The position numbers and the translations under genes were made by a program. A DNA stretch of 64,000 bases from Candidatus Bipolaricaulota bacterium (GTDB lineage Bacteria; Bipolaricaulota; Bipolaricaulia; RBG-16-55-9; DRXL01). Below are positions 23,349-32,042 of this stretch, one piece after another; position 1 is the stretch's first letter; each line of letters opens with the position of its first letter. The stretch is from positions 179-64,178 of the forward strand of contig CALLJK010000015.1 of the NCBI GenBank assembly GCA_938091745.1, given 5' to 3'. The notes beneath the pieces are model-generated. The model was not told where the DNA came from. It made no database searches and saw only the letters and a program-made list of their open reading frames with translations.

Positions 23349-23810
23349 ATGGAGATCCGGATTGAGTTGGCGCGTTTAGCATACGCTGAGAATATCTTGC
23401 GGTGCACCAACGAACCTCCGGAGATGGTGGAAGATTTGCTCTCGCTAGACGGTGAGCTGGAGAAGGCACGTCGCTGGTTTGTCTTTGCTGAAGCGAAGCG
23501 ACGTTTTGATCCTAATGTCGTGCGTGGGCTGTTGGTCTATCTGTTTAGTCACTATGCGAGCTCAGAGTTCGACCCACGCAAGCGCGAGCAACTCGTGCGC
23601 GAGATCAATGAAGGGCGGGTCCGTATGCGCGATCTGACTATAGAACGTCTCGCCGGCACGCGGCTCAGTTGGGAGCATATCTTTCGCCTAGTGGGCCGTC
23701 AATTCAATCCCACCCGCGAGAAAGAGAAGATCAAAGAGCTCTATACCCAGCTCTACGCTTCGGCTTCCGCGACGACCATCCCTCGCACGGAGGTGTCGTA
23801 TGGACACTAA
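23349..23810 (+). CDS. Hypothetical cytoplasmic protein, possibly a highly divergent ECF-sigma-like regulator
   Basis: Good ORF coupled to the downstream zinc-finger membrane protein. It has weak resemblance to sigma region 2 (LARLAY...EMVEDLL) and region 4 (LSWEHIFRLVG). Confidence 0.5.
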   Translation: MEIRIELARLAYAENILRCTNEPPEMVEDLLSLDGELEKARRWFVFAEAKRRFDPNVVRGLLVYLFSHYASSEFDPRKREQLVREINEGRVRMRDLTIERLAGTRLSWEHIFRLVGRQFNPTREKEKIKELYTQLYASASATTIPRTEVSYGH

Positions 23811-24363
23811 TTATACTCCTCTCCCCGAGGACGAACTGAATAGGGAAGAGCTTGCTGAGTTTGCCGAGCTCTTTAAGGACTTGAAGCTTCTGGAGTACTC
23901 GGATCATCCTAGCGAAGAGATCTTACGAGCTTATGTAGCGAATAGACTGTTAGAGAGCCCTGGGGCAGGGCGTGTGGGGGCCACCTTCCGCGATGAGCAA
24001 GCGTTTAAGAAGTTCTTGAGTGGACGTGTCCCACGCTGGACGCGCTCCGACGTCGCCATACACGTCTTGACATGTGCCCGTTGTCAAGAGCGCGTGGCGT
24101 ATCTACGGGCACGCCGCTGGAGTTTGCTCAGCTCGGCTCGCCAGCAACCCAAAGAAGAACAGAGTTGGTGGCGGCGTTTTGCGTGGGGAGCTGTAGGGGT
24201 TGCGGCTGCTGCAGCGATCATCGCTGCTCTCTGGCTCTGGCCTTCCAACCCACCATCACCAATGTGCTGGATCGAACAACCATGTTGGACTCAGGTCGTG
24301 CAAGACAGCCCTATGAAAGGCAGCATCATGGTGGTGTATCGTACATCACCAGGGAGATTCTAA
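23800..24363 (+). CDS. Zinc-finger (zf-HC2/ZAS-like) anti-sigma-like membrane protein
   Basis: HPSEEILRAYV...HVLTCARCQERV (HxxxCxxC), then a single TM helix (WWRRFAWGAVGVAAAAAIIAALWLW) and a short external tail. Confidence 0.7.
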   Translation: MDTNYTPLPEDELNREELAEFAELFKDLKLLEYSDHPSEEILRAYVANRLLESPGAGRVGATFRDEQAFKKFLSGRVPRWTRSDVAIHVLTCARCQERVAYLRARRWSLLSSARQQPKEEQSWWRRFAWGAVGVAAAAAIIAALWLWPSNPPSPMCWIEQPCWTQVVQDSPMKGSIMVVYRTSPGRF

Positions 24364-24453: not shown

Positions 24454-26451
24454 ATGTTTAAGCATATTAAAGTGATTGCCGTAGTGGCTCTCCTTGCACT
24501 CTTCATCGGAGCTGTGCTCTCGAGTCAGCCGAATTCGGTCGTACAAGCCCAAGCTCAGAAGATCTACAAGCTTGCGATCTTCGAGGATCTGACGAGCTTG
24601 AACAGCTTAGCCGTGCTTGGGCCGAAGTCAACAGTCTGGAATTTCTACGTGCGGCTCAACGGCTGGGGTCCGTCTCTCTTTGGGTTCTCGGACAAGTTCT
24701 ATGACTATATCCCGGGAATCGCCGATGCCAGCACCGAGGAAGAAGCGAATAAGATGAAGACCATCGGTGCAGACAAGACGGCGACGATTAAGATCAAGAA
24801 GGGCATCAAGTGGTTCGATCCTAAGACCGGCAAAGAGATCGGTGAGCTGACCGCTGAAGATATCGCATTCAGCTTCAACGCGATCATGGGCAAGAACGTC
24901 AAGGGCGAGCCGGCTTACAAGGGCATCGACCCGGTGAAGCTCGGTGGCAACTGGCCGGGTATTATTAACCCAGACTTCTTTGATCGCGCCGAAGTCGTAG
25001 ATAAATACACGGTGAAGTTCTATCTGAAGGCCCAATGCAGCTACGACGGCTGGGACGAGGGCTTGCTCTTTGCGCCCATCTTCAGCAAGGCCTACTGGGA
25101 GCCGAAGTTTGAAGCAGCCGCCAAGGCCGCTGACCCCGTCAAGGCCCTCTATGAGCACAAGGGCGACGATGAGCCCGTAGCGGGCGCTTGGCTCTTCCAG
25201 AAGTGGGAGCCCGGGGCCTTCGCTGAGTCGACAGCGAACAAGAATCACTACTTCTACAGGGCTAAGAGCGTCCGGCCCTATGCCGGCGGCTACACCGAAG
25301 AGAAGCCCGGCGTCTATAAGTACACCCACACGACCAAGACGGCCTTCAGCTATGATGGCGATCAGGGCTCGGCTATTCTCGACAAGGATAAGCCCACGGT
25401 GCGCTTGGAGCTGACCTCTGGTCCGTTCGTCGATGCGACGCAGTGGCGCATCTACGGCGATCAAGCGACAGCTGTGGCCGCGCTCATCAAGGGCGATGTG
25501 CACTTCATGCTCAACCCCTTGGGCGTACAAGCGGGCTTCCGCAAGCAGCTCAGGGAGACCAAGGGCATAGGCATTGCGGAGAACGCTGGCAACGGCTTGT
25601 ACTATATGTCATTCAACCTGCGCCGCGAGCCCTTCAATGTGAAAGAGTTCCGCCAGGCGGTCTCGATCATGATCGACCGCGAGTTTGTGACGCAGCAACT
25701 CCTAGCAGGCCTGGCTATCCCGACCTACTCCATCGTGCCGTTGGCCAACGCCGCGTGGTACAATCCCAACATCAAGACCTACGGCAAGGGCCTGAAAGAA
25801 GCGGAGAAGGCCGAGATGGCCATCAAGCTCCTCAAGCAGGCCGGCTTCAGCTGGGAGGTCGAGCCCAAGGTGGACATCCCCAACAACAAGGTCACCCCAG
25901 GGCGCGGCCTCAAGTATAAGGGCAAGGCCGTAGCCCCCTTCGAGCTGTTGGCGCCGCACCAGGGTTATGATCCCTTGCGCGCCACGTTCGCTCTGCACAT
26001 CGAGGAGCGGCTCAACAAGATCGGCATCCCCGTTAAAGTCAACCTGACGGGCTTTAACACGATCGTCAGCCGCGTCTTCGACGAGCAGAAGTTCGACGCG
26101 TGGATCCTGGGGTGGGGCTTGGGCGGCATGTTCCCCAGCTACCTCGCGACCTTCTTCCATAGCGAGAACTCCGGGCTGGGCGGCCAGAACCCCCAAGGGT
26201 ACAACAACCCGGAGTTCGACAAGCTCGCCGACGAGTTCCGCGCGGCCTGTGAACCAGCCAAGCTGAAAGAGCTGGCGTTCAAGATGCAGGAGATGCTCTC
26301 GGAAGAGCTACCGTATGTGCCGCTCTTCAACGCCCCGCTCTTTGAGGCGTTCCGCGCTGATGCCTTCGTGGGCGATCACATGCCCTATGAAAAAGTCTTC
26401 GATGGCATCCAGGGCACCAACGGCCTCATGAGTTACGTCCAGCTCAAGTAG
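24454..26451 (+). CDS. Peptide ABC transporter substrate-binding protein (family 5)
   Basis: Signal peptide; YMSFNLRREPFNVKEFRQAVSIMIDR, YNNPEFDKL and ELPYVPLF motifs. Confidence 0.92.
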   Translation: MFKHIKVIAVVALLALFIGAVLSSQPNSVVQAQAQKIYKLAIFEDLTSLNSLAVLGPKSTVWNFYVRLNGWGPSLFGFSDKFYDYIPGIADASTEEEANKMKTIGADKTATIKIKKGIKWFDPKTGKEIGELTAEDIAFSFNAIMGKNVKGEPAYKGIDPVKLGGNWPGIINPDFFDRAEVVDKYTVKFYLKAQCSYDGWDEGLLFAPIFSKAYWEPKFEAAAKAADPVKALYEHKGDDEPVAGAWLFQKWEPGAFAESTANKNHYFYRAKSVRPYAGGYTEEKPGVYKYTHTTKTAFSYDGDQGSAILDKDKPTVRLELTSGPFVDATQWRIYGDQATAVAALIKGDVHFMLNPLGVQAGFRKQLRETKGIGIAENAGNGLYYMSFNLRREPFNVKEFRQAVSIMIDREFVTQQLLAGLAIPTYSIVPLANAAWYNPNIKTYGKGLKEAEKAEMAIKLLKQAGFSWEVEPKVDIPNNKVTPGRGLKYKGKAVAPFELLAPHQGYDPLRATFALHIEERLNKIGIPVKVNLTGFNTIVSRVFDEQKFDAWILGWGLGGMFPSYLATFFHSENSGLGGQNPQGYNNPEFDKLADEFRAACEPAKLKELAFKMQEMLSEELPYVPLFNAPLFEAFRADAFVGDHMPYEKVFDGIQGTNGLMSYVQLK

Positions 26452-26534: not shown

Positions 26535-27881
26535 ATGAAACGTATTTGGCAGACTCTGACCAGCGGCATGAGCAAATTCATCATCGTGCGCCTTTTGCAG
26601 ATCATCCTCGTGCTCTATCTCTATATGACGCTGGTCTTCATTATCTTGGAGGCCCAGCCCGGCGATATTACCGACATCTACACAGCCAACCCAAAGATCA
26701 CCCCGGAGGCCAAAGAGGCGATTGTGAAGCAACTTGGTTTGAATAAACCCATCTACGAACGCTATTTGAATTATTTGCGGAACTTCGTCACCGGACATCT
26801 TGGGTGCTCGTTCAAGTGGGGCAACATCAGAGATGTCCCCGATCCGGTCTGCCGCGAGCAGCGCCCGACATGGGACTTAATCAGAGAGCGCTTACCACGA
26901 ACTATTGTGCTCTTCTTGACGTATACAATTGTCTCGTTCTACATTGGCTTCTTCTTGGGGAAGCTGATCGCCTGGCGCCGCGGTGCGATCATCGAATATT
27001 TCTCGACCGTTGTAGGCGTTGTGCTCTTTACAGTATTCACGCCTTGGTTTGCCTTGCTGCTCGTTTGGCTCTTTGCTGTGAACCTCGGCGTCGTCCCCAT
27101 CGGGGGATTTATCAATCCTGATAGCTGGACGAACATCCGTCAGATTGGGTCAGTCGATTGCAGCATCGGGATTAGCTGTTCGAATATCGTCTTTAATCAT
27201 ATGTTGCTGTGGCTAGGGGGATTAACGCTCTTCTGGGGCATTGTCTATCTGTGGAGCCGGCGCTTCCCCTATCCATGGCAGAGGAACACAGCGCGTTGGG
27301 GAGCTGTTGCTTTGGGTTTAGTCTTGGCAGGGCTCTTCTTTGGCGGCGGCTGGCTCGGCGAGATCGATCGTGTCGTATTGGCGCGCGATACGAAGTTTGA
27401 GTTCTTTGTGTGGCACTTTGAGTTTCCCGCCGGGACGATCCCGCTCTTCCCCTTGGCTCTTGACTTCGTGCAGCACATGGTCCTGCCCATCCTGACGCTG
27501 ACGCTGATCTCATTTGCAGGCACAATGTTGTTAATGAGAAATACGATGCTGGAGACGATGCGCGAAGACTACGTGATGGCCGCCAAGGCCAAGGGCTTAC
27601 CTGATCACGTCGTGCGCGATAAGCACGCGGCACGCAATGCCTTGCTCCCGGTCGTGACAAGCCTGATCTTCGCTATCGCGTTCTCCGTCGACGGGGGAGT
27701 GTTCACCGAGACGATCTTCTCCTGGCCGGGAATGGGACAGCTCTTGCTGCTGAGCGCCCTCGAGCAAGATTACCCTGTAGCCATCGGCTCGCTGGTCTTC
27801 ACGGGTATTTTCGCGTTGGTCGCTCACGTTATCGCTGATATTCTCTATGCATTCTTGGATCCGCGCATCCGCTATGATTAA
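26535..27881 (+). CDS. Peptide ABC transporter permease (OppB-like) with extra internal segment
   Basis: QLGLNKPIYERY, EDYVMAAKAKGL and DILYAFLDPRIRY; ~100-aa insertion with two more hydrophobic helices. Confidence 0.92.
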   Translation: MKRIWQTLTSGMSKFIIVRLLQIILVLYLYMTLVFIILEAQPGDITDIYTANPKITPEAKEAIVKQLGLNKPIYERYLNYLRNFVTGHLGCSFKWGNIRDVPDPVCREQRPTWDLIRERLPRTIVLFLTYTIVSFYIGFFLGKLIAWRRGAIIEYFSTVVGVVLFTVFTPWFALLLVWLFAVNLGVVPIGGFINPDSWTNIRQIGSVDCSIGISCSNIVFNHMLLWLGGLTLFWGIVYLWSRRFPYPWQRNTARWGAVALGLVLAGLFFGGGWLGEIDRVVLARDTKFEFFVWHFEFPAGTIPLFPLALDFVQHMVLPILTLTLISFAGTMLLMRNTMLETMREDYVMAAKAKGLPDHVVRDKHAARNALLPVVTSLIFAIAFSVDGGVFTETIFSWPGMGQLLLLSALEQDYPVAIGSLVFTGIFALVAHVIADILYAFLDPRIRYD

Positions 27882-27901: not shown

Positions 27902-28930
27902 ATGCAAGCCGCTCCAACATTTAAGCCGGCAGAAGCGATCTGGCGCGTGCGCCTCCAGCTCTTCTGGAGGGGGCTCAAGGGCAGTTGGGCCATGTTCACC
28001 GAGAGCAAGATCGGCTTGACCGGCTTAGGGATTATCATATTCTTTGCGCTCTTTGGGGCACTCTGGCCGGCCTACCCGTGGCTGATGGAACGGCTGGCCT
28101 GGACCCCGGAAGAGCTGGAAGCTGCCCGTAATGTTCCCTACGGGGCTATCAGTAGTATCTATCAAGTCTATGATCCAGTGACGGGGTATGACCCGCTTAT
28201 TCCGGGGATAGAGAATCCGACGCCTCCTTCACGGCGCCATCCTTTAGGGACAAATCAATTTGGCCGTGATATCTTAGCGCAACTGATGGCGAGCACCGGC
28301 TCAGAGTTCATGCTCGGCGTCCTAGCCGCGCTCATCACGGTCTTCATCGGCACGTTCATCGGCGCAATCACTGCGTATTATGGGGGCTTTGTCGATACGT
28401 TCTTCATGCGCGTGGCCGACGTCTTCATTCTCTTCCCGTTGGTCTCGTTCTTGATTGTGCTCGGCTCGATGATCGAGCTGACGCTCATCAAGCTTGCATT
28501 TGTCCTAGGAATTCTCTACGGCTTCGGTCAGATCACAGTCATTTTGAAGTCCCAAGCTTTGGCCGTCAAGGTCAAGCCCTACATTGAAGCGGCCAAGGTT
28601 GCTGGAGGCGGGCACTTCCACGTGATCTTCCGCCATATCATTCCCAATCTGTTACCGTTGTCGTTTTTATATATGATGTTCAACGTCACGGGAGCGATCT
28701 TCTCAGAAGCCGCTCTGTCGTTCTTTGGGCTGCTCCCGGGGATTAAAGTGAGCTGGGGCATCATGATTGACTCGGCTCACAGCGGCGGCTATATCTTAGG
28801 AGGACGCTCCTTCCAGAACTGGTGGCTATGGATGCCCCCAGGGATCGCGATCACTCTGCTCTGTTCGGCGTTCTATCTTGTAGGCCGCGGTCTCGATGAA
28901 GTCGTGAATCCGCGCCTACGCAAGAGGTGA
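27902..28930 (+). CDS. Peptide ABC transporter permease (OppC-like)
   Basis: HPLGTNQFGRDIL, YIEAAKVAGG...RHIIPN and GLDEVVNPRLR. Confidence 0.93.
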   Translation: MQAAPTFKPAEAIWRVRLQLFWRGLKGSWAMFTESKIGLTGLGIIIFFALFGALWPAYPWLMERLAWTPEELEAARNVPYGAISSIYQVYDPVTGYDPLIPGIENPTPPSRRHPLGTNQFGRDILAQLMASTGSEFMLGVLAALITVFIGTFIGAITAYYGGFVDTFFMRVADVFILFPLVSFLIVLGSMIELTLIKLAFVLGILYGFGQITVILKSQALAVKVKPYIEAAKVAGGGHFHVIFRHIIPNLLPLSFLYMMFNVTGAIFSEAALSFFGLLPGIKVSWGIMIDSAHSGGYILGGRSFQNWWLWMPPGIAITLLCSAFYLVGRGLDEVVNPRLRKR

Positions 28931-28934
28931 GAGC

Positions 28935-30092
28935 GTGGCACCATTGACGACATATCCCGTTCTACAAGTCGAAAATCTGACGATGCACTATACCACCCGC
29001 AAGGGTGCGGTCAAAGCTGTCGAGGACGTGAGCTTCTCCCTCGACAAGGGCGAAGCGCTAGGGCTCGTCGGCGAGTCCGGCTGCGGCAAGACTTCTGTGG
29101 CGTTGACGCTGCTCCGTTTGCTCCCAGAGAACGCTCAGTTCTTGGGTGGGCATGTCTATTTCTTCCGCGATGGCTCCGATGAAGCCCATGCCCGACGCGC
29201 TGTGGGGAAGCCCGTGAAGATCTTATTAGATGGGCAAGAGCACCAAGGCCGGCTCGTAGAAGTCGACAGATCGCAACTGGTGCTCGATGCGCGCCTCAAC
29301 GGGCGGACGCAGCAAATCAAGCTGGGACGAGACGACATCGCCCGCCTAGGAGTCGATCTGACAGCTCTCAGTGACGAAGAGATGCGCCCCATCCGCTGGA
29401 AGGGCATCTCGATGATCTTCCAAGCCGCGATGAACTCGCTGAACCCCGTCTACAAAGTCGGGGATCAGATCATCGAAGCGATGCAGACCCATATGCCTAT
29501 CCCCATCCCTGAGGCGCGGGAGCGAGTAGCTCAGCTCTTTCAGCTTGTCGGCTTGGACCGCCAGCTGATGGACCGCTATCCCCATGAGTACTCTGGAGGC
29601 ATGAAGCAGCGCGCTGTGATCGCCATGGCCCTCGCGTGCGATCCCGATATTATTATCGCTGACGAACCCACGACAGCCCTCGACGTCATCGTCCAAGACA
29701 AGATTTTACGCGAAATGCGTCAGATTCAGAAAAAGCTCAACATGAGCATGATTTACATCTCCCACGACATCGCGGTCATCGCTGAGGTCGCCGATAAAGT
29801 CGGGGTAATGTACGCCGGGGGGCTAGTCGAGTTTGGGCCTTCAGAAGCGATCTTCAAGAGCCCGATCCATCCCTATACGAAAGCGTTGATGTCGGCCTTC
29901 CCTTCAATTAAGGGGGAGAAGGTCAAACTGGCAGCACTCCCCGGTGAGCCTCCAGATCTCATCAAGCCTCCGTCGGGCTGCCGCTTCCACCCACGGTGCC
30001 CTTACGCGACAGAGATCTGTGAGCGCGAAGTGCCCAAATTTATCGAGCACAAGCCGAAGCAATACGCGGCTTGCTGGAATCCCTTAATGTAA
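28935..30092 (+). CDS. oppD: Peptide ABC transporter ATPase (OppD-like) with ~60-aa insertion
   Basis: Walker A GESGCGKT, signature [17 protein letters not shown], and C-terminal [10 protein letters not shown]...C...C. Confidence 0.9.
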
Positions 30093-30113: not shown

Positions 30114-31157
30114 GTGATCACGGTGGCATTACAAACACAGACAAAGACAGAGACTCTCGTCCGCGTGGAGAACCTGCGCATGCTCTACCCCGTAGCTACA
30201 GGGGTCTTTGCCCGAGCGCGCAGCTTCATCCACGCTGTAGACGACGTGAGCTTTGAGATTAACCGCGGCGAGATCTTCGGGTTGATCGGCGAATCTGGCT
30301 GCGGCAAGACGACCACAGGGAAGCTGCTCGTCCGACTCATCGACCCAACGTCAGGGCATATCTATCTCCGTATCACCCAGGACCCCTCAACAGATTCCCA
30401 AGGGGAGCAGTTTGTGGACATCGCGACGCTCGAAGGACGCGCCTTGAAAGAATTTCGCCGCAACGCCCAAATGATCTTTCAAGACCCGTATGAGTCGCTT
30501 AACCCGCGCATGACGATCTTCGACATCGTCTCCGAGCCGTTGAGCATCCACGGGATCGGCAGCGTCTACGAGCGCGAGGAGCGCGTCGCGGAACTCTTGA
30601 GCTTAGTAGGGCTCACCCCCCCGGAAAGCTTTCTCTTTCGCTATCCCCATGAGCTGTCGGGCGGCCAACGGCAACGCGTGGCTATCGCCCGCGCTATGAT
30701 TTTAAATCCCAGCTTCATCGTCGCGGATGAGCCCACATCGATGCTCGACGTCTCCATCCGCACCGGCGTCATGAATCTAATGCTCGATCTGCGAGAAGAG
30801 TTCGGAATTAGTTATCTATATATCACGCACGATCTGGCCGTCGCGCGCTATATGTGCGACCGCATCGCCGTGATGTATCTGGGCAAGATCGTCGAGCTTG
30901 GCCCTACAGAAGAAGTCATTCAGAACCCGCTCCATCCCTATACGCGCGCGCTCATTTCCGCTGTGCCCATACCCGACCCAACAGTCGAGCGCCAGCCCAT
31001 CGAGATCAAGGGCGGCGTGAGCAAGCCCATCGATCCTCCTCCGCGGTGTCGGTTTTATGAGCGCTGCCCTATAGCAACGGAGCGCTGCGCTCAGAGTGAC
31101 CATCCCCCCTTGGAAGACAAAGGCCATGGTCACTTCGTTGCTTGCTATGAGATCTAA
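30114..31157 (+). CDS. oppF: Peptide ABC transporter ATPase (OppF-like)
   Basis: [25 protein letters not shown] and CRFYERC motifs. Confidence 0.9.
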   Translation: MITVALQTQTKTETLVRVENLRMLYPVATGVFARARSFIHAVDDVSFEINRGEIFGLIGESGCGKTTTGKLLVRLIDPTSGHIYLRITQDPSTDSQGEQFVDIATLEGRALKEFRRNAQMIFQDPYESLNPRMTIFDIVSEPLSIHGIGSVYEREERVAELLSLVGLTPPESFLFRYPHELSGGQRQRVAIARAMILNPSFIVADEPTSMLDVSIRTGVMNLMLDLREEFGISYLYITHDLAVARYMCDRIAVMYLGKIVELGPTEEVIQNPLHPYTRALISAVPIPDPTVERQPIEIKGGVSKPIDPPPRCRFYERCPIATERCAQSDHPPLEDKGHGHFVACYEI

Positions 31158-31677
31158 AGAACGCTCCTGGCGCTACCCCGTAGGAATTGGCCTGCTGGGG
31201 ATATTGCTCATTGCTTCGCTGGTTTTGCTCACCATAGCTGAGCAAAACTACAAAGCGTTCCGCGAGGCGCTCCAAGGTATAGAGTTTACAGTGCGCCTTA
31301 CGCTCTTTGAGCAGAGTGCTCCTCAAGAAGCACGCCTCCAATGGGCAGTAACAGTGACGATGCCTGCCCAGAAGGTCCCGGCATCGCTAGAGCTCTTAGA
31401 TTGGCATCTGTACAGCGCTGATGGAAGCACGTATCTAGGGTACTACACGAGCGGAGATGTCCAGATTGCGCTGGGACCTCAGACAGAGGTCCCTCTCGAA
31501 GCTACGATGAGAGGCCCCAACCTTGAGAAATTGCAGCGTCTCCAGGAGGAGTCTCCTCAAGAGACGGCACTGCTCTTCCAAGGAGTTGCGTTAGTGATGT
31601 TCCAGTTGCCCCAAAGAGAAGAGCGCAAGAAATTCCCCGTAGTTGGTGTCTTCATACTCCCAAAGGAGGGCGAATGA
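31147..31677 (+). CDS. Hypothetical single-pass membrane protein with beta-rich external domain
   Basis: N-terminal TM helix then alternating beta pattern; coupled to oppF. Confidence 0.65.
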   Translation: MRSKERSWRYPVGIGLLGILLIASLVLLTIAEQNYKAFREALQGIEFTVRLTLFEQSAPQEARLQWAVTVTMPAQKVPASLELLDWHLYSADGSTYLGYYTSGDVQIALGPQTEVPLEATMRGPNLEKLQRLQEESPQETALLFQGVALVMFQLPQREERKKFPVVGVFILPKEGE

Positions 31678-32042
31678 AATTCCTACGATGGCTCGCCCTT
31701 GCTCTTGCTGCCGGGATAGCTGCGGGGGCAAGCTCTGCCCTCCAAACACAAGAGCTTCTCGACTTCTCTTTTGTGTCGGGGAACATCGCGTATGCGCTGG
31801 TAGCTCTTGTAGGGTTGAGCGTAGGCTTTCTTGTCAGAGGGGTGCAAGAGGGGCTTCTTATGGCCCTGTCTATTACTCTTGTGGGCACCATTACGCTCTT
31901 CTTGGCGATCTATCTCCCCAACGTCGAGATCGCGGCAACGGCCCCAGAATTGATTCTGCGCTCTGTGTGGTGGGGGGCTCTCTCAATGTTTTTCTTGACG
32001 ATCATCGGCATGGTCGTGGGGCGGATTCTCTCTGGAGAGTAA
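31674..32042 (+). CDS. Hypothetical polytopic membrane protein (~4 TM)
   Basis: Four hydrophobic segments; ATGA overlap with the previous gene. Confidence 0.65.
   Translation: MKFLRWLALALAAGIAAGASSALQTQELLDFSFVSGNIAYALVALVGLSVGFLVRGVQEGLLMALSITLVGTITLFLAIYLPNVEIAATAPELILRSVWWGALSMFFLTIIGMVVGRILSGE

Follow-up and report, generated by a model that had tools for sequence, protein, structure and literature searches.

We found that an OppD/DppD-type ABC ATPase of a Candidatus Bipolaricaulota bacterium carries an additional segment that is most probably a complete, independently folding domain of ~60 residues (linker, helix, and five strands), homologous to the Sm-fold C-domain of RimP as judged from profile comparisons and a structural model. 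The gene lies in the window, i.e., the whole stretch of 64,000 nucleotides that was analyzed. The insert is real, conserved, and apparently undescribed: a search of the full-text literature retrieved no description of an insert-bearing OppD. We regard the identity and the history of the insert, taken jointly, as highly probable: a RimP_C-like domain gained a single time, close to or at the root of one family of Bipolaricaulota. The best explanation of the whole is that of a dispensable, cytoplasm-facing docking or regulatory module of RimP_C-like origin, an explanation in which we place about even confidence.

The host gene (P0001) is an intact open reading frame on the forward strand, at positions 28935..30092, and encodes 385 aa from a GTG start. 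Its product matches the Pfam family PF00005 with 85.6 bits, in two stretches that are split by the insert, and its C-terminus matches PF08352 (oligo_HPY) with 83.9 bits, relative to a cut-off of 27.1 bits, over profile positions 1-65 of 65. The Walker A motif, read from the sequence as GESGCGKT (residues 46-53; 29070..29093, + strand), the Q-loop glutamine Q163 (MIFQ; 29421..29423, + strand), the motifs SGGM (220-223) and ADEPT (242-246), and H277 show no variation across 85 homologues. The same is true of four cysteines of the oligo_HPY region (C349, C355, C362, and C380; 29979..30074, + strand), which align with the cysteines of Mycobacterium tuberculosis OppD. We take this region to be the iron-sulfur cluster site reported for the OppD family; the partner ATPase likewise has four terminal cysteines (window positions 31000-31150). 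The nearest solved proteins, the Opp/Dpp ATPases (Escherichia coli OppBCDF 8z21 and DppBCDF 8z1v, M. tuberculosis OppABCD 8j5q, and the dipeptide ATPase 4fwi) are 34-37% identical to the host ATPase and have in common with it the operon type, the ABC_tran and oligo_HPY domains, the catalytic motifs, and the four C-terminal cysteines. Every feature that we tested places the host protein in the OppD/DppD family.

Pfam matches and gene order define an operon of five genes, all on the + strand, in the order substrate-binding protein, permease, permease, ATPase, ATPase. The substrate-binding protein (24454..26451, 665 aa) belongs to family 5 (SBP_bac_5) and is followed by an oversize permease of 448 aa with BPD_transp_1_N and BPD_transp_1 domains (permease 1, 26535..27881), by a second permease of 342 aa with a BPD_transp_1 domain (27902..28930), by the host ATPase, and by a partner ATPase of the OppF/DppF type (30114..31157, 347 aa, ABC_tran and oligo_HPY) that has a 13-aa hairpin extension of its own. 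Permease 1 has ~125 additional residues within BPD_transp_1, among them two further hydrophobic stretches. Since its orthologues already have frames of ~390-400 aa in sister families that lack the insert, most of this enlargement is older than the insert in OppD. Two open reading frames with hydrophobic stretches and no Pfam match lie 3' of the operon (31096-31677, 193 aa, and 31674-32042, 122 aa), the first of which overlaps the end of the partner ATPase gene by ~60 bases in a different frame. A pair of small open reading frames 5' of the gene of the binding protein (window positions 23349-24363) has kept its synteny in the contig of the homologue P0031 (L060:161-1356), and may therefore belong to the transporter operon.

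An earlier note on this DNA had described some 60 extra residues between the Walker A motif and the Q-loop, and our analysis confirms them. The peptide that it quoted is encoded at 29166-29348, in frame with the reading frame 28935-30092. Alignments, Pfam, hhalign, and pLDDT together delimit the insert as residues 77-140 (FRDGSDEAH...IARLGV; 29163..29354, + strand), which stand in place of a hairpin tip of 3 residues. Where the orthologues lacking the insert read GHVYF-KGQ-DLV, the protein of the window reads GHVYF-[F77...V140]-DLT, i.e., 64 residues replace 3, for a net gain of ~61. The comparison with M. tuberculosis OppD (8j5q_D) by HMMER gives the same picture: residues 8-71 of the query align to 3-66 and residues 136-381 to 69-318, which leaves ~64 query residues opposite 2. 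None of the solved Opp/Dpp ATPases found here has a domain at the hairpin that follows Walker A, whereas the host ATPase has there a predicted folded domain of 64 residues. When the whole model was compared with these structures by Foldseek, the TM-scores were 0.87-0.90 normalized by target, a range that holds for single-domain Opp/Dpp ATPase chains against the host ATPase, and 0.74-0.77 normalized by query: the targets were fully covered and part of the query was left uncovered.

The structural model was obtained with AlphaFold from the alignment of 85 sequences and has a mean pLDDT of 85.6, with block means of 90-94 over residues 81-140; it was used instead of a single-sequence prediction, which gave a pLDDT of 37. 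In the model, the two ends of the insert lie on the two strands of a single hairpin. DSSP assigns a predicted alpha-helix to residues 83-88 (29181..29198, + strand), which is followed by four predicted barrel strands at residues 93-98, 101-110, 114-121, and 124-131 (29211..29327, + strand), and by a fifth predicted strand at 135-141 (29337..29357, + strand) that continues into the ATPase's own beta-strand (GVDL). The conserved motifs of the strand region are VGKPV (90-94), GRL (105-107), and NG (122-123). In this fifth strand, G139 and D141 are invariant even when the orthologues lacking the insert are included in the alignment. A review ascribes to the C-domain of RimP one helix and a five-stranded sheet with the Sm fold, monomeric unlike Hfq (PMC9032327). 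The predicted order of secondary structures in the insert matches this description, with helix 83-88 as the counterpart of the one helix located ahead of the strands (PMC9032327). The matches listed for the whole-chain model in Foldseek are all ABC ATPases.

The assignment to the RimP C-terminal type, proposed in the earlier note as an Sm/SH3-like barrel, is largely supported by several lines of evidence, each with its own limits. The top Pfam family for the insert is PF17384 (RimP C-terminal domain, DUF150_C), with 23.4-23.7 bits and E-values of 6e-5 to 7e-5, scores that fall below the gathering cut-off of 26.3 bits; a six-frame search gave 22.4 bits. When the homologues of the insert were scanned one by one, 6 of the 13 matched this family. 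A profile built from the 13 inserts and searched against the sequences of the PDB retrieved RimP (8bdv) first, followed by the C-terminal barrel of biotin ligase and the archaeal Sm protein 1m5q (E 0.69). All these E-values are marginal, and the three matches are of the same small-barrel kind. A further comparison was made with an alignment of 31 Bipolaricaulota RimP proteins taken from genome matches. With hhalign, the insert reached a probability of 92.5% against full-length RimP (pairwise E 5e-7) and 94.2% against the C-domain alone, compared with 0.1% against the N-domain. Positions 2-56 of the insert aligned to RimP 86-143, a span that takes in the linker between the domains and almost all of the C-domain. 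As controls, the reversed alignment gave 0.2%, and 30 column shuffles gave at most 1.4% in 29 cases and 52% in one. The insert and the Bipolaricaulota RimP sequences share the motifs AxGKxV and GRL. We found no match at E<=1 to PF01423 (LSM) or Hfq in Pfam, either for the insert or for its 12 homologues.

The best sequence and profile match, the motifs, and the predicted order of a helix and five strands all liken the insert to the RimP C-domain (PF17384; 8bdv, 7NAT). The two differ in their context, since RimP is a free factor of ~150 aa with an N-terminal RbfA-like domain and a nusA-infB neighbourhood, whereas the insert is flanked by strands of the ATPase. By its sequence, the insert is not a RimP: it scores under the curated cut-off of that family and has none of the other parts of RimP. 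The PF17384 profile also matches other small barrels. Together with the score below the cut-off, this makes descent from rimP itself, rather than from another Sm-like barrel, probable and short of proven for this RimP_C-like domain. Two side observations concern barrels elsewhere. The weak matches among representative proteins (P0123-P0133) come from repetitive proteins of the Sm-, Tudor-, KOW-, or DUF2642-like kinds, none of them an ABC ATPase. Besides, a protein of 253 aa encoded in a sister genome (L058:919-1680, G022:C3) has a barrel above the PF17384 cut-off (26.5 bits), followed by a hydrophobic C-terminal half; we read its N-terminal hydrophobic stretch by eye as a signal sequence, and the protein is presumably exported.

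The organism has a RimP of its own (L002:1483-1938, - strand, G000:C5; 151 aa), encoded upstream of a 320-aa open reading frame that we take from its position to be nusA. This protein scores 19.7 bits on PF17384, under the cut-off and under the insert; the RimP proteins of the same genus that are listed score from 18.9 to 37.8 bits. The insert is ~25% identical to the organism's own RimP in the aligned region. Among the 17,116 six-frame reading frames of the genome, RimP is the best match to the insert profile other than the insert itself, with a non-significant E-value of 0.36, and BLASTP gave a 14-residue match and nothing else. On these two results, we rejected a recent copy from a donor within the genome. 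The weakness of the similarity to the genome's own RimP indicates that the capture was not recent, which leaves either an old event or a sequence that diverged fast.

The earlier note proposed a search for other OppD proteins with the insert, and these turned out to span one family. The source names of close homologues indicate Candidatus Bipolaricaulota. Whole-genome searches recovered the orthologue, at full length and with the insert, from 12 species of the window's own genus, with 89-98% identity, as well as from genus g3 (71%) and genus g2 (64%), all three genera belonging to the same family. The insert is in frame and of similar length (65-71 aa) in the 12 species and in the two further genera, while its identity to the insert of the window across the three clades is 22-44%. 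Other families of the order have best orthologues with frames of ~330 aa that are 67-74% identical after the insert, and the insert is absent from the sister-family orthologues that were retrieved. The search of the insert profile against 1.84 billion representative proteins yielded two matches at E<=1e-10, both of them this OppD and one a fragment, from which it follows that the domain in this form is limited to one 50%-identity cluster. These data bear on the trivial explanation that the segment results from an assembly or annotation artefact, or that it is a strain-specific recombination relic, as the earlier note had envisaged for the case in which its reading failed. The presence of the insert in frame in independent assemblies of the 12 species of the genus, in the two additional genera, and in numerous proteins from metagenomes, along with its confidently predicted fold and the purifying selection described below, contradicts this explanation, which we consider refuted for all practical purposes.

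We built a tree of the ATPases from which the columns of the insert were left out. All 13 insert-bearing proteins fall in a group of 18, whose members lacking the insert are P0031 and a group of four proteins, P0014 and its relatives, which has no firm position in the tree. P0031 is nested inside the insert-bearing clade 3 (SH-aLRT 99), and its core is 80-82% identical to this clade compared with 71% to the other clades. It carries SREGAT alone at the insertion site, and the gene order of its contig (Ga0394882_0002695) is that of the window, also as regards the 153-aa reading frame upstream of the operon, which has a homologue there (50% identity). Forcing the 13 insert-bearing proteins into one clade made the tree worse by 54.8 log-likelihood units (p-AU 0.029), for a group that was named after the tree had been seen. 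The sequences are most simply accounted for by one gain and at least one loss, with the lineage of P0031 indicating a secondary loss. As P0031 lacks the insert in a syntenic operon, the transporter evidently works without the domain.

The sequences point to a clear purifying selection on the insert, much weaker than that on the ATPase core: within the genus, 58 pairs give a median dN/dS of 0.179 for the insert against 0.025 for the core, and the dN of the insert is 6.5 times that of the core. Across the three clades, G91, V94, G105, and R106 are invariant, and N122 and G123 nearly so. Glycines and hydrophobic residues of the core account for most of the invariant positions, and an arginine for one. 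This pattern is equally compatible with selection for the ability to fold and with a conserved surface for binding.

The region of the hairpin has also been extended in other proteins. The partner ATPase has, at residues ~86-100, an extension of 13 residues (RITQDPSTDSQGE) at the hairpin equivalent to the site in OppD; the extension is present in the genus, occurs in a similar form in G025, and is absent from several sister-family orthologues. An insertion of ~130 aa lies just upstream of the hairpin strand in L025 (G033:C254), and L021 (G019:C32; P0100) has a segment of 22 aa that resembles a local duplication (KDLLKLPEEE / VDLLKLPERH). P0054 has an insertion of ~90 aa at the same site as the RimP-like insert; that it would be the same domain is not supported, as it scores 2.6 bits on the profile of the insert. 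The fused D-F proteins of ~660 aa (P0009, P0011, P0023, and P0028) lack the insert. We also considered, and rejected, a co-occurrence of the insert with the oversize permease, which has 390-400 aa in families lacking the insert, and with the extension of OppF, given the case of G025.

Such events raise the main rival to a functional module, in which the barrel would be an almost neutral passenger of the structure, with no partner and no regulatory role. A RimP-like fragment would have come to lie in a hairpin that tolerates insertions, and selection would maintain its foldability, and nothing more, to spare the ATPase from destabilization. Indels are concentrated at this hairpin in the clade (G019/P0100, P0054, G033, and the OppF extension), the insert has evolved at 6.5 times the rate of the core, it was lost once while the operon was retained, and its conserved positions are mainly glycines and hydrophobic residues, all of which a passenger would explain. 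On the other hand, a dN/dS of 0.18 is well under 1, the reading frame and the length have been held across three genera even though the inserts are 22-44% identical, and the arginine R106 has been retained throughout. We therefore find a passenger rather unlikely, and nonetheless the alternative to be taken most seriously.

By the general architecture of ABC ATPases, the hairpin should belong to the antiparallel beta subdomain, beside the adenine pocket, and be away from the coupling helices and from the sandwich formed by Walker A and the signature motif. Given this expected distance from the membrane domains and the ATP sandwich, and the intact motifs, the barrel probably projects into the cytoplasm as a non-catalytic knob. 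Placed on the tip of the hairpin after the Walker A helix, it would be a rigid accessory to one of the ATPase subunits, outside of catalysis. The function that we prefer for the barrel is that of a docking surface for a lineage-specific protein partner that would tune or localize the transporter. We put forward such a docking or regulatory function tentatively, and with less than even confidence, by analogy with other transporters.

These analogies are several. The C-terminal domains of MalK, ModC, and MetN and the CBS domains of OpuA are accessory regulatory domains of importer ATPases, and resemble the insert in being small extra domains located outside the catalytic core of such an ATPase, at a likely site of regulation. 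However, they are C-terminal, are usually paired in the dimer, and have TOBE/OB, ACT-like, or CBS folds, whereas the insert sits internally, in the beta subdomain, and only one of the two ATPase subunits has it. The regulatory insertion of CFTR NBD1 likewise interrupts the antiparallel beta subdomain of an ABC ATPase. Yet, that insertion separates the first two strands, is disordered for the most part, and is regulated by phosphorylation, whereas the insert described here separates the two strands that come after Walker A and has a confidently predicted barrel fold.

Small beta-rich regulatory domains are common on importer ATPases, and one may ask if the barrel senses a small ligand, such as the imported peptide or a metabolite, and exerts a trans-inhibition like that of the C-terminal domains of MetN and ModC. 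The analogy with these regulatory domains and the proximity in sequence of the insert to the nucleotide-binding subdomain would be compatible with this role. However, there are no conserved polar residues suggestive of a pocket except R106, and the heterodimer would have a single barrel, whereas the known trans-inhibition domains act in pairs; a ligand sensor thus seems quite improbable.

The earlier note had further suggested that the domain may bind RNA or protein and could thereby link peptide import to the state of the ribosome or of RNA, and the link to RNA or the ribosome finds no support in our analysis. The homology of the insert with the Sm-fold domain of a 30S assembly factor (PMC9032327) is an argument for the binding of RNA or of the 30S subunit, and the inserts are mildly basic in two of the three clades (pI 8.5-10.7). 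But those of the third clade are neutral or acidic (pI 5.3-6.8), such that pI values range from 5.3 to 10.7 and net charge is not conserved. Moreover, the direct contact between RimP and uS12 is reported as the pairing of strand beta1 of uS12 with strand beta3 of RimP (PMC8177701). As the N-domain of RimP has three strands (PMC9032327), we place beta3 in the N-domain, which the insert lacks. The Pfam searches gave no LSM or Hfq match, the domain would be anchored to a complex in the membrane, and it has been lost from one lineage. A barrel that binds RNA or the 30S subunit is accordingly improbable, and we find it very improbable that it has kept an affinity for the small subunit, an assembly intermediate, or RNA through which the importer would be linked to translation.

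Few molecular machines have been studied as thoroughly as the ATPases of ABC importers, and their regulation usually enters via accessory domains. In MalK, this takes the form of inducer exclusion, and in MetN and ModC that of trans-inhibition. The finding described here concerns a clade that is narrow and uncultured and in which one lineage does without the insert. It shows that the hairpin after Walker A is able to host a whole domain with the catalytic motifs undisturbed, which is useful for engineering, e.g., for the placement of tags or sensors. If an affinity for the ribosome or RNA had been kept, the domain would provide a direct physical link between amino-acid supply and the state of the ribosome in a streamlined uncultured bacterium. 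More generally, half of a ribosome-assembly factor has probably been re-used in an unrelated machine, and the close orthologues with and without the insert in syntenic operons constitute a natural experiment, in which the contribution of the domain to the transporter can be asked directly.
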